Shown in pieces: positions 5,865 through 19,855 of a DNA stretch of 20,000 bases. This DNA is from an uncultured virus (IMG/VR IMGVR_UViG_3300025647_000017). Lineage: Duplodnaviria > Heunggongvirae > Uroviricota > Caudoviricetes. The notes beneath the pieces are model-generated. The model was not told the origin of the DNA, searched no databases, and saw nothing but the letters and a program-made list of their open reading frames with translations. A program made the translations under genes and the position numbers. Every line of letters begins with the position of its first letter. Position 1 is the first letter of the stretch. The stretch is taken from the IMG/VR virus record IMGVR_UViG_3300025647_000017; one strand, 5' to 3'.

Positions 5865-7448
5865 TTATTTAAAATAGTTTTCCTTGATGTCCCAAATAGA
5901 CTGCTCCTTGAGGAACACACCATCTTTGTATAAGGTAGTCAGAAGTCCAGTCTGTTCTTCTTCCTCCGAACAACTCTGGTGTAGATTAAAGTCCTTGTCT
6001 ACCATCAACAAACCTCGTGCAGACTTCTTGAATACATCACCCATAGGTGTCTTCTGTTGTTCTAGGTTAACAATATTATCATCAATTTCTGCTACAGAGA
6101 AAGTTTGCTTATAACTCATAGAGAATAAATCTCGTGTGTTGTTTTGAAGGTTGGCATAACTACCTTTACCAATCACTAAGTTTATTGCAGAGAATCCTGT
6201 CTCAATCATACGCTCATAGATCTCCTTTTGGTGTTGTTGAGATATTGCCTCCCCATAGATAATTCCAACTTTAGGGTTTAAGAATTTCATCTTGCCTGAG
6301 GGTGTATTTAACTCTTCACCACCAAATACCTCCCATAAGATTTGTAGACTACCTTTACGTTCTAATTCACAATCAGACTCACTATCACCACAAATCACTT
6401 CTAGTGGGCGTTTCTTAGAGCTATCTGGACGCCACACCCACTTAGCAGGTAATCCATTTGCACCATCTTGTCGAGATAGGATTTTATCCTTATTAGCTAA
6501 AGCATATTCACTAATTGAACGGAAGTAATTCTCTGTGTCGGCAACATAAGAAAACATACCCGTTGTGTTATCCGCTAACAACCCAATTAGGGTTTTCTCA
6601 GTATCCTCTGTAATACCACGATATCGTAGTTCAGACAATAAACGACTAATATCTGCATGTTCAGACGCACGTATACTAACAGCAATTGGTGCATCTGTCT
6701 TAGGGTTGTAATCGTAGTATTGCGTTAGGAAATCAATAACAGCAACAGTATCACTGCCAATAAATGGAATAGAAGATGCACTACCTACACGCATACCATG
6801 TTCTGGTCCCATCATCCCACGAAATTCGAAGTTGTGGACACAGAATGGTAGCCACCCAGCAACAACTTCCACGGGTGCAGAGATGTTACCGTAATATTTT
6901 GACTGCTGATAAAACTGGTCAATAATAGTAGCAGTATTAATCATAGGGTAGATTAAATTACTTGATAAAGTTTCAAGATTATTTACCAACCACCCATAAC
7001 CCTCGAGGGTGTTCTTACTTGTGAAGATTGGTAATCCAATAGGGTAGCGAACACCCTCATCAATAGAACGAATCTCTAATGGTAAATAACCTAGTGTATG
7101 TAACCCCATAATATCTTCAATATAATCTTTATGATCAATCACTACGTCACCACCAAAGTGAGAAGTTAATCTTACAATAATACGAGATAATACCTCATCT
7201 ACAGGAGTTTTAAAGAACACTTCAAACAAATTATGGATATATTTGAATGTATGACGTGTACCATAGATTACCAAATTACCATCACTGTGATCAGAGAAAG
7301 TGAAGTATGCGTTCTTACGTGCAGTAAAGTTACTGTAGGAAGATAACACCTTAGTAGGGCTACCTTTAAACATCTCATGGTTGTGTAACACATTCATGCC
7401 AATCTTATAACTATCCACTAGTGCTTCGATTTGTAAATTAATACTCAT
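5865..7448 (-). CDS. Nicotinamide phosphoribosyltransferase-like protein (NAMPT/NadV family; candidate Namat)
   Basis: 527 aa; DSYK, HNFEFRG, ASEHA, RPDSS, YGEAI and KKSARG motifs match the NAMPT family with some substitutions. Confidence 0.85.
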   Translation of the reverse strand: MSINLQIEALVDSYKIGMNVLHNHEMFKGSPTKVLSSYSNFTARKNAYFTFSDHSDGNLVIYGTRHTFKYIHNLFEVFFKTPVDEVLSRIIVRLTSHFGGDVVIDHKDYIEDIMGLHTLGYLPLEIRSIDEGVRYPIGLPIFTSKNTLEGYGWLVNNLETLSSNLIYPMINTATIIDQFYQQSKYYGNISAPVEVVAGWLPFCVHNFEFRGMMGPEHGMRVGSASSIPFIGSDTVAVIDFLTQYYDYNPKTDAPIAVSIRASEHADISRLLSELRYRGITEDTEKTLIGLLADNTTGMFSYVADTENYFRSISEYALANKDKILSRQDGANGLPAKWVWRPDSSKKRPLEVICGDSESDCELERKGSLQILWEVFGGEELNTPSGKMKFLNPKVGIIYGEAISQQHQKEIYERMIETGFSAINLVIGKGSYANLQNNTRDLFSMSYKQTFSVAEIDDNIVNLEQQKTPMGDVFKKSARGLLMVDKDFNLHQSCSEEEEQTGLLTTLYKDGVFLKEQSIWDIKENYFK

Positions 7449-7459
7449 ATTTGTTCTCC

Positions 7460-8317
7460 TTATTTATTCAAATTAAAATTAGTAATATCTTGTTTGTTGA
7501 GATACTTACCAACTGTATGGTAACAGTACACATTATCAATCAAACCTTTTAAACTGTCAAGACCTTTTGCACCAATCATATGGGTAATGTAAAGATCTAC
7601 TTGTTTTGCACCAACCTCTTTTAATGCTTTGGCTAAGGTAATGAACGTACCACCGTAATCTAGTAAATCATCTGGGATTAACACTACCTTCCCTGTAAAA
7701 TCTACATCAGAGGGTAATAGGGTCTTGATAATCTTACCTGTACTAATATCACGTTCCTTTCCACAGTTGTATACATCAACCCTTAAGTGATCAGCAATAC
7801 TAGCAGCCTTATCAATTGCACCTTTATCTGGTGCTAGGATGATATCATATTTAGTATTAAAGTCATGAGGTAAGGATTGCTTAAAGCATTCAAGTTGAGA
7901 CTTTTCTACAATGTTTAAACCAAGGCGATACTTATCACAAATACCATACACAGCCTTCTTATTGTGCATATCACAAACATGGACCTCATCAAAACCTTCA
8001 ATATCTGCCAAAGACCATAGAAACATTTTAAGTGGTAATGGATTACCATCCTCAAACACTCTATCAGCACGTCCATAGATCATGTATGGTATATGTAAAT
8101 ATAGTGGAACATTACATTGTAACTTCATTTCATCAATACAACTCATAAGCATACGTAGCTCCTCAATAACTCGATACGCTGGTGTTGTTGGGCAAACGTT
8201 GATGCTGATATACTTGGGTTCTTTAGGTAGATTATCTAATTTAAATGTTATCGCCCCATCACTAAATTCAACCATATTAACTGGTATTTCTTTATTATCT
8301 GCAAATACTGTAATCAT
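7460..8317 (-). CDS. Ribose-phosphate pyrophosphokinase-like protein (candidate Adps)
   Basis: 285 aa; FSDG, PYMIYGRADR, DMH, APDKGA, KERD and the PRT motif IPDDLLDYGGTF. Confidence 0.88.
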   Translation of the reverse strand: MITVFADNKEIPVNMVEFSDGAITFKLDNLPKEPKYISINVCPTTPAYRVIEELRMLMSCIDEMKLQCNVPLYLHIPYMIYGRADRVFEDGNPLPLKMFLWSLADIEGFDEVHVCDMHNKKAVYGICDKYRLGLNIVEKSQLECFKQSLPHDFNTKYDIILAPDKGAIDKAASIADHLRVDVYNCGKERDISTGKIIKTLLPSDVDFTGKVVLIPDDLLDYGGTFITLAKALKEVGAKQVDLYITHMIGAKGLDSLKGLIDNVYCYHTVGKYLNKQDITNFNLNK

Positions 8318-8382
8318 ATTATTTCTCCTTATTTTAAAATTAACTCTAATTGTTCACTACTCATATCATTTGGGTCTAATCC

Positions 8383-8817
8383 TTATGGTAACAACTTCAA
8401 ATTAGAACGTAAATTATTATTCTGTCTCTGCAGCACTTCTTCTGGTACTTCGTGTACATTACCACTGTCATGTCTGTTTTCTACGATAAGACTAATAACA
8501 TCATAGTTGTATTGTTCTGCCAATTCAATATAAGGTTTGATTTCCTTTTCAGTGGTAGAAGTGTTATGGACAATGATGACACCAATACCCAACTCCATAA
8601 AGTCATCAACTATACCTTTACACCACTTATGAGCTGCAGCTAAATTCTCTACTTTGAAATTGTAATTACCTTCCTCGTCATAATGAAAGTCATCTGCTGC
8701 CACAGCGTAACAACCTTTACTTCCAATATCATTGTCAATAAGATCTTGCAGCCAATCAGCCAAAGTTGTCTTACCTGCGCCACTACAACCTCTAAGTATA
8801 ATAAGTTTATTTTTCAT
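8383..8817 (-). CDS. P-loop kinase (AAA_33/polynucleotide-kinase-like)
   Basis: Walker A RGCSGAGKTT, AADDF, HNTST; start reassigned to ATG 8817 after GAGG; overlaps the RNA ligase stop. Confidence 0.75.
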   Translation of the reverse strand: MKNKLIILRGCSGAGKTTLADWLQDLIDNDIGSKGCYAVAADDFHYDEEGNYNFKVENLAAAHKWCKGIVDDFMELGIGVIIVHNTSTTEKEIKPYIELAEQYNYDVISLIVENRHDSGNVHEVPEEVLQRQNNNLRSNLKLLP

Positions 8818-9697
8818 TAAAATAGTCCTCAATTAATTGTCTACGTTCATTCTCACTAAAAGAATAATAAACTTCTTTAGTGTAACCGTCAAGTAAATAC
8901 TGGTGGAAATCATAAAATTCTTCATCGATTTGTTTCTTGAATTCAGTAGGATTATCAAATGCTAAATCAATACGTTTACGTCCCATGCGGAGGAAAGCTT
9001 TCTTACTCAAATAATGAGGTGACTTTAGTTTACATAACACAACTCCAGTTTTGGCACACAATATCATATAACCTTCTTTATTAGTTTCAGGTATATCTTT
9101 GAATTTCATTAACCCAACAGAAGGTCTATGACAATGTAATAAACGTGCCATATGATCTAACACCCATTCACTGGACAATTCTCCAGAGTTGGTAGATCTA
9201 ATACCAATTAAATAAGCTCCCTCATCTTCATATACAATATGTGGGTCTGAGTTATCACAAATTTCAAACATATGTGTATACCCAGTAAGCATCATATCTG
9301 TTGCTAAAGGTTCAATCCACTTACGGGCTAAGTCTGCATATTCAGAGTCAATTGTACCAGTGGTAGAGATAATCAATCCATACTTACGTGTCATAGTAGC
9401 ACACCCTAGGAAACCATTAATTTTGGTAGGTATTTCTACCATACGTTCAGGATCAATAGTAACTCCATTCTCACCAAGGTTAAATACTTTCTTAAATGGG
9501 TGTACAATAATATTATCATCTTCATCTACGACTAAGCCACGGCACTCTAGTAGACGTTCATCTAAGTGCCACAGGTTATCCCAGAATACTTTCTTAGTGT
9601 ATTTTAGGATCGACAAACCTTTATATTTACCTTCAGTATAAGTTTTCTTCTTAACCAAACCTTGTTCAATTAAATCATCCACATTAAATTTAGCCAT
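8807..9697 (-). CDS. RNA ligase, T4 Rnl1-like
   Basis: ECRGLV; nucleotidyltransferase motifs I KINGF, III MFEI, IV KEGYMI, V KLKS. Confidence 0.8.
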   Translation of the reverse strand: MAKFNVDDLIEQGLVKKKTYTEGKYKGLSILKYTKKVFWDNLWHLDERLLECRGLVVDEDDNIIVHPFKKVFNLGENGVTIDPERMVEIPTKINGFLGCATMTRKYGLIISTTGTIDSEYADLARKWIEPLATDMMLTGYTHMFEICDNSDPHIVYEDEGAYLIGIRSTNSGELSSEWVLDHMARLLHCHRPSVGLMKFKDIPETNKEGYMILCAKTGVVLCKLKSPHYLSKKAFLRMGRKRIDLAFDNPTEFKKQIDEEFYDFHQYLLDGYTKEVYYSFSENERRQLIEDYFNEK

Positions 9698-10259
9698 TAT
9701 TTCTTCTCCCTACAACTTCAATTTGTTTCAACTCAGATACCACATCTTCAAGGTTTAATATTTTACCGTGAGCATCCCAACCTACATCCATAGTACGACC
9801 TTCAATACCAGAAGGAGAATCATGCAAGTGTCCGTGAAGCGCTATGCTACCATGATCACACTCGTTCCAATGCTTGATTGGGTAGTGCATCATACAAAGT
9901 TTAACACCATTAAATCTAAATTCCAAATAATCATAGAAAGGTACTCCCATAGCTCCTAGAACCTTCCTACAATGGTTTCCAGCAACCCAAGTTATATTGC
10001 CATTAAGTTGAGATATGATTGCCTCAGTAGCTTCTCTACCTTTAAATGAGAAGTCACCTAAGCTAATAACCTCATCATCAACACCAACTATAGAGTTCCA
10101 ATGCTCAATCAATGCTGCATTCATATCATCAACATTAGACCAAGGTCGAGTATCAGGACAGAATCGTAAGACCCCTGTATGGTAGAAATGTAAATCGCTG
10201 GTGATAAAGTATCTGGTGTCAGTGTTAGATGTATTAATTTTCTGTCCAAATTTAATCAC
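9690..10259 (-). CDS. Calcineurin-like metallophosphoesterase
   Basis: SDLHFYH, LGDFS, GNH, HYP and LHGHLH motifs; GTG start with AGGAGG SD. Confidence 0.88.
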   Translation of the reverse strand: MIKFGQKINTSNTDTRYFITSDLHFYHTGVLRFCPDTRPWSNVDDMNAALIEHWNSIVGVDDEVISLGDFSFKGREATEAIISQLNGNITWVAGNHCRKVLGAMGVPFYDYLEFRFNGVKLCMMHYPIKHWNECDHGSIALHGHLHDSPSGIEGRTMDVGWDAHGKILNLEDVVSELKQIEVVGRRNNG

Positions 10260-10291
10260 TTTGTAAAGCCTCCTATTTAAATTAGACGATA

Positions 10292-10320
10292 AATATACAA
10301 TACTTAAATCTACCTGTCAA
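10292..10320 (-). promoter_or_regulatory. Sigma70-type promoter for the phosphoesterase-ligase-kinase-NAD genes
   Basis: TTGACA (10320-10315)-17 nt-TATATT (10297-10292). Confidence 0.65.
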
Positions 10321-10370
10321 CCTATAAAATAAAACCCACACAAATTAATACATGGGCTTGATGGTTTAGT

Positions 10371-11477
10371 CTACTTATTCAGTTCAGTAATATACCATGT
10401 ACGTGCTTTAGTTGATAGGTATTTTCCCACTTCCTTCATTGTAAGGTTATTACTTTCAAGGACATCACCTTCTTCTTTATTAATGTCTTTACTTACCCAA
10501 CTAAGGAATGCACCAATTAACTTCTGGTCTTTACCTACCTCAGCTAAGCCTTGTTGTAGTCTATTCTCTGTGGCGGAATACTCTACAAACTCTTGAATTG
10601 AATTTAACTTTTCTACATTGACTGAAGCTACAGATTTAACTTTAGACACAGAATGTTTTTCACCTTTAGTTTTAAACCAATTACCACTGTCCCAGCAATG
10701 TTCATCACTAACTGGAGTCCATACTAACCCCTCTCCAAGGACTTGTGGTTTACCTGCGGCGCTCATTAGGTTAAGTTGTTTTGACACAGGACACTCAGCC
10801 TCACAAGCTTCAGTGTAACCTACTAGAGTGTTCTGGACAAACATAGGATTCTGGAAATCAATAGTGACCTTCTTTGTAGGAAAATCTATGATAGCGTAGA
10901 AACCGTCAGCTTGGGTATCATTATTAGTAAGCCCATAAGTTAGTTCTACTGGCAACCAACCTTGTTTCAGTGTTTGGTCAGTATCCCCAGCCTTGATACC
11001 AAAAATAAATAAAGACTTCTTAGGCAAGAACGAGATACCAACCGAACTCTGAATACCACTTCCACACCATTCACCTGAAATCTTAAGAGGGTATAACTCA
11101 ACACCATTGTAAGCTTTGGCAAAAGTCTTTGCTCTTTCTATAATAGTGTACAGAGAATCTAACCTACGAACCATTGTTTGAGCGAACTCAGCATTATCTG
11201 AAAGTAAAGTAAATCCTCCATTTTTAATATAACCTAGTAAATTATTCTTACTATGGAACGAAATAACCCCGTCTTCATCAACTACAATACTAGCATTAGT
11301 CCCATGTAACTTCACAGTACCAATGTATTCAATAGTAGGTGCAATAGCAAGTTCATTTAAGATAACATTACCATCTGCATCAAACCCATTAAATTTAGCT
11401 TGTTGTTGAATATTCTTAACCACATTACGGAATTGACCAGTAGAGTGGAATGAGTAGTTTGTTGGTTGTTGTGACAT
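10371..11477 (-). CDS. RNA ligase, Rnl2 family
   Basis: Motifs I KLHGTNA, III SGEWCG, IIIa FIFGI, IV GEGLVW, V FKTKGEKH. Confidence 0.82.
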   Translation of the reverse strand: MSQQPTNYSFHSTGQFRNVVKNIQQQAKFNGFDADGNVILNELAIAPTIEYIGTVKLHGTNASIVVDEDGVISFHSKNNLLGYIKNGGFTLLSDNAEFAQTMVRRLDSLYTIIERAKTFAKAYNGVELYPLKISGEWCGSGIQSSVGISFLPKKSLFIFGIKAGDTDQTLKQGWLPVELTYGLTNNDTQADGFYAIIDFPTKKVTIDFQNPMFVQNTLVGYTEACEAECPVSKQLNLMSAAGKPQVLGEGLVWTPVSDEHCWDSGNWFKTKGEKHSVSKVKSVASVNVEKLNSIQEFVEYSATENRLQQGLAEVGKDQKLIGAFLSWVSKDINKEEGDVLESNNLTMKEVGKYLSTKARTWYITELNK

Positions 11478-11700: not shown

Positions 11701-12414
11701 TTACTTGATGCGGCTTCTGTGGGCAGCCAATGCCGTGGGGGAGGAGATTGTTGGTAGTGGGTAGGCTTTATGCAATTTAGTCTTTTGCAGAAAAGCCATA
11801 CAATCGCCAGCGCAGTCAACCCAGTCATCCTTGATCGATGCTGTAGATGGACTTCCATCAAAAGCTTCTAACTCTTTGTAGAAAGCCTCTAAAGTGGCTT
11901 TATTTTCAAAAGAACTTTCAACTATATGTACTAACCCATTCTGACATGCAGAAGAGAATATAGAGAAACGCTTTACTTTGCCACCTTTTACGTTACCAAC
12001 TTCAGAACCTCTTACATGAAAACCTTCATTTGTAAGCATCTTAGCTAAGTCTTCAAACTGCGCCTTACCAGCGCCACTCTCTTTAGGCAGTAATATATAA
12101 GTATCTTCTCCATCCCATTGAGCTTGTTGCAACATCCATGTATTTCTCTCGCCAAAGCGTTTCCTAAACCTACCAACTACATCAGTTTTAGGGTCTTTTA
12201 TCTCTGGGTGATAATTAGCAACTATAAAATATAGGCCGTCCTTTCTAATCATACGTACTGATGCAGAATAATCTGGATATCTATTTTTGTCACTAGGTTC
12301 AGAATGAGCTAAATCCCATGCTCTACATGCTAAACCTCCAACTGGCTCATTATCTACTTTGTGTAACCACTCCCTCTGGAATAGGTTACTCCCTTCTGGT
12401 CTTGCTAGCCAATT
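11701..12414 (-). CDS. terL: terL exon 6 (nuclease domain, 237 codons)
   Basis: NWLARPEG...RAWDLA...PDYSA...KDDWVD. Confidence 0.9.
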   Translation of the reverse strand, partial: NWLARPEGSNLFQREWLHKVDNEPVGGLACRAWDLAHSEPSDKNRYPDYSASVRMIRKDGLYFIVANYHPEIKDPKTDVVGRFRKRFGERNTWMLQQAQWDGEDTYILLPKESGAGKAQFEDLAKMLTNEGFHVRGSEVGNVKGGKVKRFSIFSSACQNGLVHIVESSFENKATLEAFYKELEAFDGSPSTASIKDDWVDCAGDCMAFLQKTKLHKAYPLPTISSPTALAAHRSRIK

Positions 12415-14297
12415 CGATTTGTTACAAAATTGTTAAATCTTGCACCTTACGGTCTCTATGTCACCATAGAAGTTCAGACTATATCTTTACCTATTAAGGT
12501 ATCTAACATTTCCACCTACTAGAAGTAAGCGTACACCATTTCTGGTTAGTCGTTGCACTACACAATTATATATTTTGCATAGCTCAGTATTGTCTCAGAG
12601 AGATATCCACTGAATTAAATAGATTTATAAAGACGGCAATTGTTCACCGTCTAGTAGTCTTGCCCTGTTAATCTTAGTCTGTGCCTTAAGTGCAGACAGA
12701 TACTTCGGATTTTGTTTGATTAGGGCTGGATTCTTAACTCCTTGTTTTATAACAAGGAGTTTGGACTATATCTTCACCTCTAAAGGTGTTCTATTTTCGA
12801 GTATAAGCACCCTACACCCTAACGGGTTAGTCTCTGAAGGTGTTAACCTATGGTTAACGTCCCTGCTGATTGTCTTTAGTTTATAAAGAGTTCCCAGCAA
12901 TTAAAAGAATTTTCACCATGAAATTACTAACATGGGCGACAATCATCTATCGAATATATTTCCCCCAATAAAACAAAACGTCATTGGAGGGACGTACACT
13001 GTCTTATCTTCAATTGGATTATACACATAACATAGGTCTGGGTATTGCTCTGCCAATGTTTCAGGATCATCTGCGAACACTGGGGTATCATCAACTACCA
13101 AGAAATATCTTATATGCCCTAATTTACTCTCATCAAACACTCCAGTTTCATCTAAATAATACTCTACCCATTGAAAAACCCAACTATCTGCATCTGGGTT
13201 GGTAGTGGCTAACATAAATGAATCACTGTCTGCAGCAGAACGCATACGTCCCATTAAATATAAAAACTGCGAACAAGTGAAGTGAGTTAGTTCATCGAAT
13301 CCGACAAAAGAATATTGTAAACCTTGCTTGTAACCTATTGATTACTATGGACTATATCACTGTCTACTTAGTAGACACTCTATTTTCGAGATTGTATTAA
13401 TCCCTACACCCTAACGGGTTAGTCTCTGAAGGTGTTAACCTAGGGTTAACGTCCCTGCTGATTGGTCACTACGTGACTATCCCAGCAATTAAAAGAGTTA
13501 TTCGAAACACATTACTGTATTAAGCCACCAAATTTTAATGGTTACCTTCCGCGTCACTTTCATGCTCAAGGTGTGTAAATTTAAGGTTGCCTCCTTTATT
13601 ACCCTCTGCACCACTGAACATGATTTCCATGTCCTTTTCTCTCACCCTTGTTCCTAGGGGTTGGTATAATTTCTTTGCCTCACTAAACAGACCACCTGCT
13701 GCTTTCAATGGAGGGGAAGTCCTACGGAACATTACCCCCTCAAAGTTGGGGTCGTTGTGAGCGTAATACCCTGCCTTCAATAAGAGTAACCTACTTTTGC
13801 CAGATCCTGCCAAACTGGACTATTATTCTTTATGTCACCATAAAGCTTAGATCATATCTTCCACATATAAGTGGCTTTCCATTTCGAGTATAAATACCCT
13901 ACACCTCTTCAGGTTGATCGTTGCACACAGTATAATTAAATACCTTCGCTCAGTATTGTCTCGTAGAGATATCCACTGAATTAGAAAAGTTGATTATCGA
14001 GGTGCCACAGGATTTACTAGCACCTCCGTAGATCATTACATCTACCTTCATTTGCGCTGCTAACGCTTGTTTCACTACCTTACGTGGATCGTTACACCAC
14101 TCTATGCATTACTGCACAAGTTGAGACTATATCTTATTACTCTATTGTTTCGAGTTCACTTGAACTCTACATCCTTTCGGATTAGTCGTTACACGTTTTT
14201 AATTCGCTAGGTATTATCCTATAAGGGACCTTCACCTAATTAAATAGATTTATAGTAGGCAAACATTACCTACTTGCGGGGATAATTCATTACTCAT
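11701..14297 (-). CDS. terL: Terminase large subunit, six exons: 14297-14268, 14072-14019, 13810-13538, 13326-12949, 12732-12646, 12414-11701; 511 aa after splicing
   Basis: Spliced product: MSNELSPQVG^KQALAAQMKVDVMIYGGA^AGSGKS (Walker A)...EGNH^QGLQYSFVGFDELTHF (Walker B)...ATTNP...NIFD^NP...RLLDG^NW...RAWDLA...DDWVD; GAGAGG SD before ATG 14297; all joins in frame. Confidence 0.93.
12415..12645 (-). mobile_element. Group I intron 5 (231 nt, ORF-less)
   Basis: P1 AGACGGU/GCCGUCU; P10 CAAUU/AAUUG; R GCAACGACUA; S AAGAUAUAGUC; terminal G at 12415. Confidence 0.92.
12646..12732 (-). CDS. terL: terL exon 5 (29 codons)
   Basis: NPALIKQNPKYLSALKAQTKINRARLLDG. Confidence 0.88.
12733..12948 (-). 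mobile_element. Group I intron 4 (216 nt, ORF-less)
   Basis: P1 CGAU/GUCG; P10 GAUU/AAUC; P, Q, R, S elements as in intron 3; terminal G at 12733. Confidence 0.92.
12949..13326 (-). CDS. terL: terL exon 4 (126 codons)
   Basis: QGLQYSFVGFDELTHF (Walker B)...ATTNP...GGNIFD. Confidence 0.9.
13327..13537 (-). mobile_element. Group I intron 3 (211 nt, ORF-less)
   Basis: P1 CCAU/GUGG; P AAUUGCUGGGA; Q AAUCAGCAGG; R UUCAGAGACUA; S GAUAUAGUCC; terminal G at 13327. Confidence 0.92.
13538..13810 (-). CDS. terL: terL exon 3 (91 codons)
   Basis: AGSGKSRLLL...MFRRT...DAEGNH. Confidence 0.9.
13811..14018 (-). mobile_element. Group I intron 2 (208 nt, ORF-less) inside Walker A
   Basis: P1 GAGGUGCU/GGCACCUC; P10 AUCCUGU/GCAGGAU; P7 GAUCA/UGAUC, a compensatory variant of GACUA/UAGUC; terminal G at 13811. 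Confidence 0.92.
14019..14072 (-). CDS. terL: terL exon 2 (18 codons)
   Basis: KQALAAQMKVDVMIYGGA, the first half of Walker A. Confidence 0.88.
14073..14267 (-). mobile_element. Group I intron 1 (195 nt, ORF-less, IA2-like)
   Basis: P1 AGUAGGU/GCCUACU with U-G at the 5' splice site; P10 UGUUU/AAACA; R GUAACGACUA; S AAGAUAUAGUC; two hairpins after P7; terminal G at 14073. Confidence 0.9.
14268..14297 (-). CDS. terL: terL exon 1 (10 codons)
   Basis: MSNELSPQVG; the start overlaps the endonuclease stop. Confidence 0.85.
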
Positions 14298-15753
14298 AAC
14301 TGTACCTCTCTTTGTATAAATCTTCTATAAAAGATATATCTATATTATTGGAGAAGATGTCAGAGATATTAGGTAATATTACATCATCATTACTCCCGTC
14401 TATAATATCATTAACCATCTCGTATAGAGTACTATCTAGGTTGAATATTTCCGTATACCCTCCGAATTTTATATTTGATTTTACCTGTAGTGGCTTGAAG
14501 AACATTTTTAAACTACTTTCAATCCTAGCACAATCTAGATATGACATCCTTCTGTAATTGAGGAATGTAAAAACAGAGTCTAGTGGTAGGTCTTTCTTGT
14601 ATGTATACTCCCTACTAGATAGGCTACTAGTAATACCTATTTTATAAACATTATCATCTAAGGAATCCACATATCCTAGGTAAAAATACCCATACTTCTT
14701 ATGGATATTAGGTATTTTCAATATAGAGGCTATAGACCACCTATTCATACCTAACTTACCACACGTAGGGCAACCAGAGTTTTTATTCTTATCCCTGTGC
14801 ATTAGAGGGGTAACATTAAACCATTCATCGTGCTGATTACACTTAAGTTTAACCTTAGTGGTATTATTTACATACTGCACTAAGGAGTAATCTAGCGCAC
14901 CATTCCCATATTCCACAATAGAATCAGAGATAAATTGGTCTTTACCTAAAAACATACCTTCCCTAGAACATTTCTGACAACCTTGCCCATTTACATGGTT
15001 ATTGGCTATAACAGAAAATTCACCATGCCCTTGTTCCTTGCAAAACACTTTAACATTTTCAACAGCATTGATATATTCAGTATTGGTGTAGTCGTATAAG
15101 TTATTATGTACCTCCATTGCCTCTTTAATAAAAGCTTCGTTGGTTTTTGTCATGGATATTTTACGATCTTCTTCTCCGCATGTAGGGCAACCTTGCCCTT
15201 GTATATGTGCAGACGGTCTCTGTTTAAAAGGGATGTTGTGTTTTGTACATAAGATCTCCATCATAGTGCGACTACAAACATAGTCCTCTACGTTATACAC
15301 ATATTTATCTCCGTGCAATGCTTTTGCTTTAGTGATGAAGACCTCACCTTCTTTTAAAATTTTACAATTACCACACCCACCATAGGGAGTATCTCTAACA
15401 GAAGATAAAGTAGATACATAGTGTCCATGTAACATACAGAACATATCTTGTTTAGAGTGTATGGTTTGGTACTCAGGGTTATCTAATACCTCATATTTAT
15501 CACCGTGAGCCTTTTCAATTAAACCCTTCTGTATTTCAAAGTTCTCTCGTCTTCGTATAGCCAATGCACAATCACCGCACCTTTGTCTTGCGTGAATATG
15601 AGAGGAAGGCATCATAGTAAACTCACCATGTATTGGGCATATAATCCTAATACTAGTCAACATAGCTATATATGGGTCTGGGTATTCATAATAGTCACCG
15701 TGGATAGCCTTCGCTTTTTCTATGAAAGTTTTAGTATTAAATTTTTCAGCCAA
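14290..15753 (-). CDS. Free-standing putative homing endonuclease: five Cys/His zinc-binding repeats plus a C-terminal GIY-YIG-like (T5orf172-type) domain
   Basis: Five ~62-70 aa repeats of the form FI.KA...HG..Y.Y...C..H..F.....H....C..C; C-terminus GYFYL...YKIGIT...R...E...GYTEIF; TTG start probably 15753 after GGAGG. Confidence 0.75.
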   Translation of the reverse strand: MAEKFNTKTFIEKAKAIHGDYYEYPDPYIAMLTSIRIICPIHGEFTMMPSSHIHARQRCGDCALAIRRRENFEIQKGLIEKAHGDKYEVLDNPEYQTIHSKQDMFCMLHGHYVSTLSSVRDTPYGGCGNCKILKEGEVFITKAKALHGDKYVYNVEDYVCSRTMMEILCTKHNIPFKQRPSAHIQGQGCPTCGEEDRKISMTKTNEAFIKEAMEVHNNLYDYTNTEYINAVENVKVFCKEQGHGEFSVIANNHVNGQGCQKCSREGMFLGKDQFISDSIVEYGNGALDYSLVQYVNNTTKVKLKCNQHDEWFNVTPLMHRDKNKNSGCPTCGKLGMNRWSIASILKIPNIHKKYGYFYLGYVDSLDDNVYKIGITSSLSSREYTYKKDLPLDSVFTFLNYRRMSYLDCARIESSLKMFFKPLQVKSNIKFGGYTEIFNLDSTLYEMVNDIIDGSNDDVILPNISDIFSNNIDISFIEDLYKERYSYE

Positions 15754-16105
15754 TAGCAACCTCCACCTTATCTACATACCACTCAACATAGTTCCCTATA
15801 TAAAAGTTTGGTATACCGTCTAACACTTCTTCCCCAAACTTATCAAACAAAGTCTTAACTTCTTTCCACTTATCTTCTTGGAATTCAGAAGCTATATAGA
15901 TTTCATTATCATAATCAGAAAGGTCATGTGATGTACCACCATACGTATAATCTATATAATCTTCCTGAATAGACGGATCTAACCCTGCAATCAACATTGA
16001 AGTTCCATGACCTACGTGCTTCATAGAGCATTCGTCTTGATCACCACATCTATCAATCTGCCATAACAATTGATTAACCTTCAAATTAGCTTGTTTCTTA
16101 TTCAT
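15746..16105 (-). CDS. Hypothetical protein
   Basis: Start reassigned to ATG 16105 (MNKKQ) after AGGAG; overlaps the start of the next gene. Confidence 0.65.
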   Translation of the reverse strand: MNKKQANLKVNQLLWQIDRCGDQDECSMKHVGHGTSMLIAGLDPSIQEDYIDYTYGGTSHDLSDYDNEIYIASEFQEDKWKEVKTLFDKFGEEVLDGIPNFYIGNYVEWYVDKVEVAIG

Positions 16106-18184: not shown

Positions 18185-18189
18185 AACAG

Positions 18190-18579
18190 TTATAGTATGA
18201 ATTCTATCTTATTTAATAAGAATTGGTAATCGTAATCTGAGTTCCAAACTCTTTGATACACACAAGATAACATGTCTACATCCTCTACCATAAATTCATT
18301 ACCAACCACAATAAAGTTAATAATCTGGTGTAATGAAGCTATAACGTTTGATTTATATGGTGCATGTTGCAGTCGTTGTAGTGCAACACTTATATCATGC
18401 AAATAGGAATGTACCGCATTAGAAGGTATATTATCCTTAAGACAAGCTTGTTTTACCCTTACATCAGCTAACAATAACTCTATACGCTTAAATATCTTAT
18501 TGTGCAAGCCACTTGGTACATCGGGGCCAAGTCTTTGGTATACTTTAGCTAATTCCGCTATTTCTGTAAAATTATTCAT
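18190..18579 (-). CDS. Hypothetical protein
   Basis: 129 aa ORF with AGGAG SD. Confidence 0.65.
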   Translation of the reverse strand: MNNFTEIAELAKVYQRLGPDVPSGLHNKIFKRIELLLADVRVKQACLKDNIPSNAVHSYLHDISVALQRLQHAPYKSNVIASLHQIINFIVVGNEFMVEDVDMLSCVYQRVWNSDYDYQFLLNKIEFIL

Positions 18580-18630
18580 TTGTTTATTATTCTCCTGTCA
18601 CTTCCTAACTTAAGGAAATTTATTGGGTTG

Positions 18631-18655
18631 ATAAAAGCCCCGCATCTGCGGGAAC
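18631..18655 (-). terminator. Terminator closing the non-coding RNA region
   Basis: Minus strand CCCGC-AGAT-GCGGG then GCTTTTAT. Confidence 0.65.
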
Positions 18656-19402
18656 ATTTGTATGAGTGCATACCTGAAGCTAATCTGTCTTCAGTGGAAC
18701 TCAATGGTTCGGTACGTCTACCTAGATATTCGCAGTATCTTACTTCTGACTTTATAACAGAGCTTAGTAGAGGAACCTAACTCACAAGTAAGGACGTTTC
18801 CAAGGTTATTTATAAAGTTTTTAGTCATTACTACGGTTGCTACTTATATACCGACCAACCTCTAATAATAGGAGAAAATCGGTGTTGCGTTCTTTGTTCA
18901 CATGGTCGCTTACGTGTCTAATTTCTAATCCACCTAGCAGTGGTAACTTATTAGGAGAGTTGTATATGCACTATATTTCAGTGGAAGTAACTGCATACTA
19001 TTCTACCACCTTTACACACGAAACCTGTTTAAAGTCTGCTGTGCTATTGCCGACTAACTTGCCTTACGGCTACCATATGACGACATCATCAATTAAATTG
19101 AGAGAGGAACTTCATACTACCTTCTGTTCAACGCATCTGCGTTCACTTAATATAATGGTTTCAGTATAACCTCCACCACAGTGTCTACCATATGTAATTA
19201 TAACTAGAACTCATTAATAATGAGGGAAGTGTATAAATACTAACAAACAAGACCTTGTAATTAAAACCTATTACCGCATCGCACTGACCATTTTACTGGT
19301 TGGGAAGGAAACCTACTGCCTAGGTAAACATTAAACTATCTAGCGCCTCAGTAGGGACAAGTCATCCTTATCGTCTTGAGTTTATACACATCAGAAGTGT
19401 TA

Positions 19403-19475
19403 ATATGATTGTGAGATTCGAACTCACGTCCCCGTCTTTAGAACGGATATCTAGGCCAACTGAAAATAAATCATA
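19403..19475 (-). tRNA. Degenerate tRNA or pseudo-tRNA (nominal anticodon TAA, uncertain)
   Basis: Acceptor TATGATT/AATCATA; canonical T arm GTGAG-TTCGAAT-CTCAC; anticodon stem TCCGT/ACGGG with loop TCTAAAG; weak D stem, no U33, no encoded CCA. Confidence 0.6.
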
Positions 19476-19673
19476 TTATTAAAGTATCTGTTATCTAGTC
19501 GCTTGCTAGAGGCTGCGAAACATAAAATAAGCCATGCTACTGCACAGTCAAAACACTTTAATAATATAAACTATTTACGTCAGTTACTCGTTCAAAACAC
19601 CTTCTCACACTACACTGAGCAAAACTGTACTATATCTCAATGGTGTTGTCTAGTACTGACGGTGTTTTAAAAT

Positions 19674-19810
19674 TGGTCGGGAGTTGTAGACGTTACCCTA
19701 CACTATGAAGCCTCCACGCCATGATGCGTCCTCTGGTCATATTCCTTCGATAAAGGTGTCTCCAGTGCAATCATGACTCGGCACCCACGAACATCTTCGT
19801 AGAACTCCCG
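19674..19810 (-). ncRNA. 137-nt tRNA-like RNA with an acceptor stem and encoded CCA
   Basis: CGGGAGT/ACTCCCG 7-bp stem plus A plus CCA; adjacent stem-loop TGTAG-GGTAACGT-CTACA in the T-arm position. Confidence 0.65.
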
Positions 19811-19826
19811 TTTGTTTCTATAAGGT

Positions 19827-19855
19827 ATCTTAACCTTCTTTCTTGTTATTGTCAA
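19827..19855 (-). promoter_or_regulatory. Sigma70-type promoter for the ncRNA cluster
   Basis: TTGACA (19855-19850)-17 nt-TAAGAT (19832-19827). Confidence 0.75.

Follow-up and report, generated by a model that had tools for sequence, protein, structure and literature searches.

The Vibrio phage ICP1 encodes a lncRNA between gp139 and gp140, in a locus of ~1 kb that lacks open reading frames (ORFs) and runs from a promoter to a terminator. This locus, syntenic with the one described here, gives rise to the most abundant ICP1 transcript, ~800 nt in length, as reported in PMC7567579; in related phages, according to PMC9040626, an RNA of this kind precedes the lysis genes. Hi-GRIL-seq recovered chimeras of the ICP1 lncRNA with many transcripts of both phage and satellite (preprint 10.1101/2022.04.08.487710). 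The tRNA cluster of phage T4 contains tRNAs together with stable tRNA-like RNAs (species 1 and 2, encoded by rnaC and rnaD), and relatives have endonuclease genes inserted in such clusters. GOLLD and ROOL are likewise large phage non-coding RNAs that often adjoin tRNAs. Type III antitoxins are described as small pseudoknots with an A-rich loop (PMC12283969), and phage phiTE bears a pseudo-ToxI, a type III antitoxin RNA without a toxin. According to PMC3475682, phage-encoded ToxI mimics suppress ToxN abortive infection; in phiTE the suppression arises only after repeat expansion or capture of a true ToxI, and over-expression of just one aligned pseudo-ToxI repeat in that study had no antitoxic effect.

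We analyzed a window of 20,000 nucleotides that forms the end of a 129,650-base virus record. The capsid protein of this phage shares 54% identity with its counterparts in Vibrio phages S4-7, VnaP and 1.170.O, and the closest annotated relatives of the phage at the locus of interest, hereafter the array, are Shewanella phages 1/4 and 1/40; its host is probably a Shewanella. Elsewhere in the window, five group I intron-like elements, three of which exceed the Rfam gathering score, interrupt the terminase large subunit gene (11701-15759, minus strand); an endonuclease ORF lies at 14290-15759. The region 5865-11477 (minus strand) encodes an NAD salvage pair, nicotinamide phosphoribosyltransferase and PRPP synthetase, and an RNA repair set comprising two RNA ligases, a phosphoesterase and a kinase-like ATPase.

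The array is a non-coding stretch between a conserved promoter and a terminator. Both signals had been named in the initial annotation and are present in the sequence: the promoter is kept in the loci L005 and L006 and in phage 1/4, and the terminator has its stem at 18653-18638. The window holds no excess of promoter-like sites (70 found versus 73.9 expected), so this promoter taken alone is no better than chance. The claim that the stretch holds no credible coding sequence also stood: a Shine-Dalgarno 4-mer precedes none of its 13 ORFs of at least 20 aa, and their codon scores reach 0.4 at best, against 1.3-49.3 for eight reference genes, a thin margin for small genes. The 1250-nt gap that contains the array is the second longest gene-free stretch in the genome. 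The longest, at C1 44763-46974 (2.2 kb), shows no similarity to the arrays.

A blastn search with the array retrieved 87 phage records, four of them from Shewanella phages 1/4 and 1/40 and 83 from Vibrio phages, nearly all ICP1. In phages 1/4 and 1/40 the same flanking genes bracket a tRNA-Gly, a tRNA-Arg and a long gene-free sequence, and the ICP1 lncRNA occupies the same position. The array is thus the syntenic counterpart of the Shewanella 1/4 and 1/40 tRNA clusters and of the ICP1 lncRNA. In sequence, only a 44-nt core at the 3' end of the gp139-gp140 gap and short patches, including a block related to module M6, are common to the array and the ICP1 RNA, and the majority of the modules are different. 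Neither a tRNA nor an M5 match is present in ICP1, whereas the window array resolves into exchangeable modules. Unlike the ICP1-type locus, the window array is not followed by recognized lysis genes in the PHROGs annotation. The features of the array are listed in Table 1.

Table 1. Predicted signals and modules of the array, in the order of the presumed transcript (positions in the window).
Feature	Position	Strand	Remarks
Sigma-70-type promoter TTGACA-17-TAAGAT (predicted)	19827..19855	(-)	10/12 consensus matches
M1, tRNA-like RNA	19674..19810	(-)	z -2.21; complete homologs: L006, Vibrio phage 1.170.O
M2, branched stem-loop, borders redrawn	19594..19671	(-)	98.8% in L005; diverged in L006
M3, closed by a 13-bp perfect AU-rich inverted repeat	19473..19567	(-)	z -2.45
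M4, degenerate tRNA-like element	19402..19476	(-)	T arm canonical; D arm and encoded CCA absent
LK, near-invariant 30-mer, predicted small H-type pseudoknot	19372..19401	(-)	recurrent exchange boundary
M5, member of a pseudoknotted phage RNA family	19248..19378	(-)	covariance model R1
M6, conserved hairpin	19151..19249	(-)	5'-truncated relative to homologs; 92% in L006, 87% in phage 1/4
M7, conserved sequence module	19059..19143	(-)	70% to L020
M8, segment	18924..19058	(-)	no homolog among the loci compared
M9, conserved block	18800..18923	(-)	95% in L005, 85-97% in L006
M10, 3' module	18661..18799	(-)	two-hairpin core 18753-18694 common to the ICP1 lncRNA 3' end
Intrinsic terminator (predicted)	18631..18653	(-)	6-bp stem and T tract; identical in L006

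M1 is predicted to fold into a 7-bp acceptor-type stem, D-arm-like and T-arm-like hairpins and a long variable arm, with an ACCA end. Double changes occur in 12 of its 41 predicted pairs, among only three sequences; phages 1/4 and 1/40 hold just its 5' half. In size and in its tRNA-like 3' end, M1 is like T4 species 1/2. The array has no sequence similarity to rnaC or rnaD. M2 shows double changes in 10 of 23 predicted pairs (four sequences). The single full homolog of M3 is in phage 1/40 (92%), with no double change; in phage 1/4 the terminal stem of M3 encloses, as judged by eye, a different insert. M4 coincides with an element already noted as tRNA-like, for which ARAGORN calls a tRNA-Leu(taa) at exactly these positions; a true tRNA was rejected, given a fold without a D arm, no Rfam tRNA match at E<=1 and the ARAGORN call standing alone. 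No full homolog of M4 was found among the loci compared. Blocks related to M6 occur in ICP1 and four Vibrio phages, with three of six predicted pairs double-changed over eight sequences, and M10 matches ICP1 at 88.6% over 44 nt, with double changes in three of nine predicted pairs (seven sequences). M7 gave no consensus fold over eight sequences. M9 begins with a short motif common to Vibrio phage arrays, for which seven sequences likewise yielded no consensus fold. Many modules of the Vibrio arrays recur across genera.

The initial annotation had divided the array into seven stem-closed domains. Every closing stem that it named is present in the sequence; the borders of three of the seven domains proved wrong or unsupported. 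The proposed 18803-19172 domain (370 nt) is not a unit, since its folding z-score is -0.06 and relatives break inside it near 19124 and 18920; one strain contig spans 19124-18965, in the M8 region. The module proposed at 19578-19661 was redrawn to 19671-19594 because L005 carries the block without the actgacg arm. At 18663-18784, L006 lacks the 5' arm, yet tgagt (18703-18699) and actca (18667-18663) are kept, as judged by eye. Two elements, the near-invariant 30-mer at 19401-19372 and the module at 19249-19151, had not been recognized before. Folding stability in the array did not exceed that of shuffled sequence: the z-scores of the seven proposed domains were -2.21, -1.35, -2.45, -0.52, -0.83, -0.06 and -0.06, i.e., below -2 in just two, and 22 sliding windows across the array averaged +0.28, versus -0.42 for 46 coding windows.

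An Rfam scan of the array gave no match at E<=1. This silence carries little weight for short units, as Rfam also missed the ToxI unit of L032 described below. The covariance models of GOLLD and ROOL were among those without a match at this threshold, and a kinship to these RNAs is disfavored further by their architecture: each is a single conserved fold, and the window array is a mosaic.

Near-zero folding scores, together with the small CDSs annotated in homologous arrays in GenBank, are what would be expected of a neutral spacer or a set of small ORFs with hairpins arising by chance. We give this reading the lowest probability of those considered: no ORF has a codon score or ribosome-binding signal to match, conservation extends across phage families, and the covariation in M1, M5 and M10 (19810-19674, 19378-19248 and 18753-18694) already contradicts it there. 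The proposal of a non-coding operon of structured modules is thus borne out in part: synteny, conservation without coding potential and covariation speak for it, and several of its domain borders are wrong.

Comparison with near-identical phages shows that the modules are exchanged between them at recurrent breakpoints. L005 and the window agree at 1055 of 1057 positions downstream, yet the L005 array lacks M1 and M3-M8 and carries tRNA-Arg and tRNA-Gly in their place, while L006 has a 2.2-kb array that includes a tRNA-Met. Strain contigs from four runs share breaks at 19372/4, 19401/2, 19594 and 19676/7; the first two fall at the edges of LK (19372 and 19401 in strain contigs) and the last two flank M2. 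L024 and L027, identical to the window over 1450 nt, were excluded from these counts, and L007, L014, L015 and L031 were treated as chance matches. The shared 30-mer, the recurrent breaks and the L005 and L006 differences together argue for this exchange, and its route would most simply be recombination at shared blocks. LK itself was rejected as a repeated recombination site, being present in a single copy in its own genome. Variation is also seen outside the array. L026 (~2540-2900) has the array of L005, but the 115-aa gene that lies upstream of the terminase region differs in its 5' part; mosaicism thus reaches beyond the array. A 129-aa ORF (18190-18579, minus strand) without a PHROG match lies between two terminators; it is missing in L005 and in strain contigs, which are joined at 18186-18670 and 18186-18712, and a related ORF replaces it in L006.

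Endonuclease genes of the HNH or T5orf172 type interrupt several Vibrio arrays, so homing could explain the mosaicism with no need for an arms race. SegB, whose gene lies inside the T4 tRNA cluster, is a precedent for endonuclease-driven shuffling, and the mobile promoter cassettes of T4-type phages (PeSLs) are a further one. These observations belong to the main rival of the reading that we prefer, namely that the array consists of cis-acting elements (for RNA processing, as an RNase barrier, or for antitermination or translation) and decayed parts of a tRNA cluster, shuffled by homing or recombination and devoid of a general decoy role. The genuine tRNAs at the same locus in relatives, the degenerate appearance of M4 and the truncation of M6 fit it as well. 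It leaves unexplained, however, the near-perfect host antitoxin unit found in such arrays, and the window array ends at a terminator; we consider it rather unlikely overall.

M5 belongs to a family of pseudoknotted RNAs that shows strong covariation and occurs in T4 and in many unrelated phages. Its elements follow the order PA, PB, a variable hairpin PC, PA', a three-way junction (PF, PD, PE) and PB'. In the window, PA is formed by 19369-65/19309-05 and is crossed by PB (19361-57/19258-54), and the junction comprises PF (19303-02/19268-67), PD (19300-297/19290-87) and PE (19284-83/19277-76). The covariance model R1, trained without the window lineage, scored the window copy at 32.3 bits (E 1.2e-7; runner-up 11.7 bits) and the copies of Vibrio phages, Barba phages and L020, L030 and L032 at 23.7-36.4 bits. 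The Shewanella 1/4 and 1/40 copies were weak (12 bits), and the model found no M5 in ICP1. A pattern scan of IMG/VR returned 74 loci, of which 15 were treated as chance matches; R1 matches 59 of the 74, many of them training sequences. The family was traced via L020 to Barba phages and T4-like phages, and the JD18 copy matched 1042 of 50,697 phage records at E<=10, in 376 cases over at least 80% of its length.

Across an alignment of 51 copies, two PF pairs form without exception (14 and 13 double changes); a PE pair forms in 48 of the copies (15 double changes) and the third PF pair in just 32. PD pairing is no evidence, because PD belonged to the search pattern. Candidates and chance matches had been sorted by eye beforehand, and the covariance model later concurred. 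In an anchored count, both PF pairs were found in 53 of 53 candidates versus 4 and 6 of 11 chance matches, after 5 of 58 candidates and 1 of 12 chance matches without the exact anchor had been dropped. The PA pairing score was 10.74 versus 8.88 ± 0.25 with shuffled partners. For PB there was no signal without an anchor (11.40 versus 11.18 ± 0.31 shuffled), while anchoring on PA gave 9.82 versus 8.31 ± 0.27 over 55 distinct sequences, and 7.64 versus 7.93 in the chance set; these shuffle tests ignore the relatedness of the sequences. M5 is absent from Rfam. We found no description of it in the literature, including the covered part of the PMC10690425 supplement, and M5 may be among the 10,000 candidates listed there.

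The T4 copy of M5 lies between denV and vs.8, 6 kb from the tRNA cluster, and comparison with that cluster ruled out an identity with rnaC or rnaD. It overlaps the annotated vs.8 start (L125 4845-4907, minus strand; ~64.85-64.9 kb). In other T4-like phages the homologs are intergenic, and the vs.8 start annotated in T4 may have been called too early. Across 56 M5 copies, 25 lie within 80 nt upstream of a gene, a position that suits a cis role, as does that of the T4 copy, and M5 in particular may act in cis; the remaining 31 have no gene within this distance, which speaks against such a role.

The crossed-helix order of M5 is reminiscent of HDV-like ribozymes. Together with the invariant core and the tandem copies in L081, L089 and L091, this raises the reading that the polycistronic RNA is cut by its own modules, M5 or others, as self-cleaving ribozymes not yet described. 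HDV-like ribozymes have a conserved L3, however, unlike the PC loop of M5, which is free in length and sequence, and no Rfam ribozyme match was obtained for known self-cleaving ribozymes in the array or in the M5 homologs. We judge this reading very improbable. A hammerhead reading of LK and M5 was rejected by eye, with GAAA and CUGA taken as the hammerhead motifs: neither has the GAAA core, and the window M5 lacks CUGA.

M5 also bears on the function proposed for the ICP1 lncRNA, that of one long base-pairing RNA which sponges small RNAs of host or satellite or triggers mRNA turnover. The Hi-GRIL-seq chimeras and the weak overall folding of the array, which leaves much sequence free, agree with this. 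However, an abundant RNA ligates promiscuously, and the authors report chimeras rather than their outcome. Only short patches are common with ICP1, and in M5 the internal pairing is conserved while the stem sequence varies, which points to shape rather than seed pairing. For the window array we find this explanation improbable.

Six of 20 other arrays, some of them from a different type of phage, contain LK at 96.7-100% identity. All 63 of 63 cells of its predicted pairing are paired, with one double change, a level that 53 of 500 shuffles also reached. The predicted pseudoknot has an A-rich loop, and its architecture resembles, by eye, a cptI row in a table of PMC3401426. Exact-pattern searches for cognate tandem LK repeats upstream of a bacterial type III toxin found none, and the LK pattern gave five single matches and no tandem repeats in GTDB; such searches would miss diverged cognates.

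A type III antitoxin unit is carried by arrays that share modules with the window. L020, L030 and L032 each contain one ToxI unit that is 97% identical over 35 nt to the repeats of pECA1039. These repeats precede toxN in pECA1039, and the table in PMC3401426 lists them as toxI/toxIN. Matches to the unit, at up to 97%, occur in 77 plasmid records, where it mostly stands as five repeats. All three loci have M5 in common with the window, and LK and M7 in part. The ToxI-bearing arrays come from other types of phage and have only these three modules in common with the window array. Five of eight IMG/VR loci with a ToxI unit also hold M5. As in phiTE, the antitoxin RNA occurs without its toxin: a check of 14 phage loci and of the window's own genome found no toxN. 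The two cases differ in copy number, as phiTE is reported to need 4.5-5.5 expanded repeats, the module-sharing arrays have one near-perfect unit, set among modules unrelated to it, and the window array has none (best ToxI-like score 22, p 0.43). A Shewanella TenpI motif had no match in the window array either. Searches for ToxN and TenpN in 401 and 400 genomes, respectively, of a sampled class found no match and are uninformative, since the controls were also silent.

Single ToxI units without toxN also occur outside such arrays, in L133 (1201-1226), L136 and L138; in L133 a second, diverged unit lies directly behind the first. The arrays of L004 and L023 contain diverged ToxI-like units by eye, with scores not above shuffles. 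A module that recurs in the arrays of L036, L037, L038 and L043 looks, by eye, like one of the type III antitoxin repeats tabulated in PMC3401426.

Because M5-sharing arrays of other phages carry an antitoxin RNA copy, the array is likely to be a kit of decoys. We see about an even chance that the locus is a polycistronic, hypervariable cassette of RNA decoys against RNA-based defenses of the host. The ToxI unit supports this guess, already made in the initial annotation, indirectly, through the module-sharing arrays; no decoy target was found for any window module. In such a cassette, the locus of this ICP1/Shewanella-1/4-like myophage would be transcribed from the promoter to the terminator as one abundant RNA, which host RNases may cut at AU-rich spacers and long terminal stems into separate RNAs. 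The modules would then bind and neutralize RNA-binding defense proteins of the host, such as type III toxin ribonucleases and tRNA-cleaving nucleases. The tRNA-like M1 and M4 could serve as baits for tRNA-targeting enzymes, LK could be a type III antitoxin-like pseudoknot, and shared modules would provide the recombination sites for exchange. The two RNA ligases and the phosphoesterase encoded in the window fit a phage that faces RNA-cleaving defenses. M5 sits less easily with mimicry, as a mimic would be expected to have a host counterpart and none was detected: the strict M5 pattern matched 58 of 126 loci and 0 GTDB genomes.

A broader reading is more tentative, and we rate it as somewhat less probable than even. 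Such loci may be RNA anti-defense islands in which one strong promoter drives interchangeable decoys traded among unrelated phage families, with the ICP1 lncRNA and the odd RNAs of tRNA clusters as instances; some decoys would have been copied from host defense, as with ToxI, and others, such as M5, would be phage inventions.

What is new here is the M5 family and the ToxI connection. The parts list, the covariation-backed fold and the ToxI module make the RNAs of ICP1 and of tRNA clusters testable module by module. In T4, whose genome is among the best studied, M5 appears to be a conserved RNA that annotation has missed. If the decoy model is true, phage counter-defense includes RNA cassettes that are invisible to protein-centered surveys.
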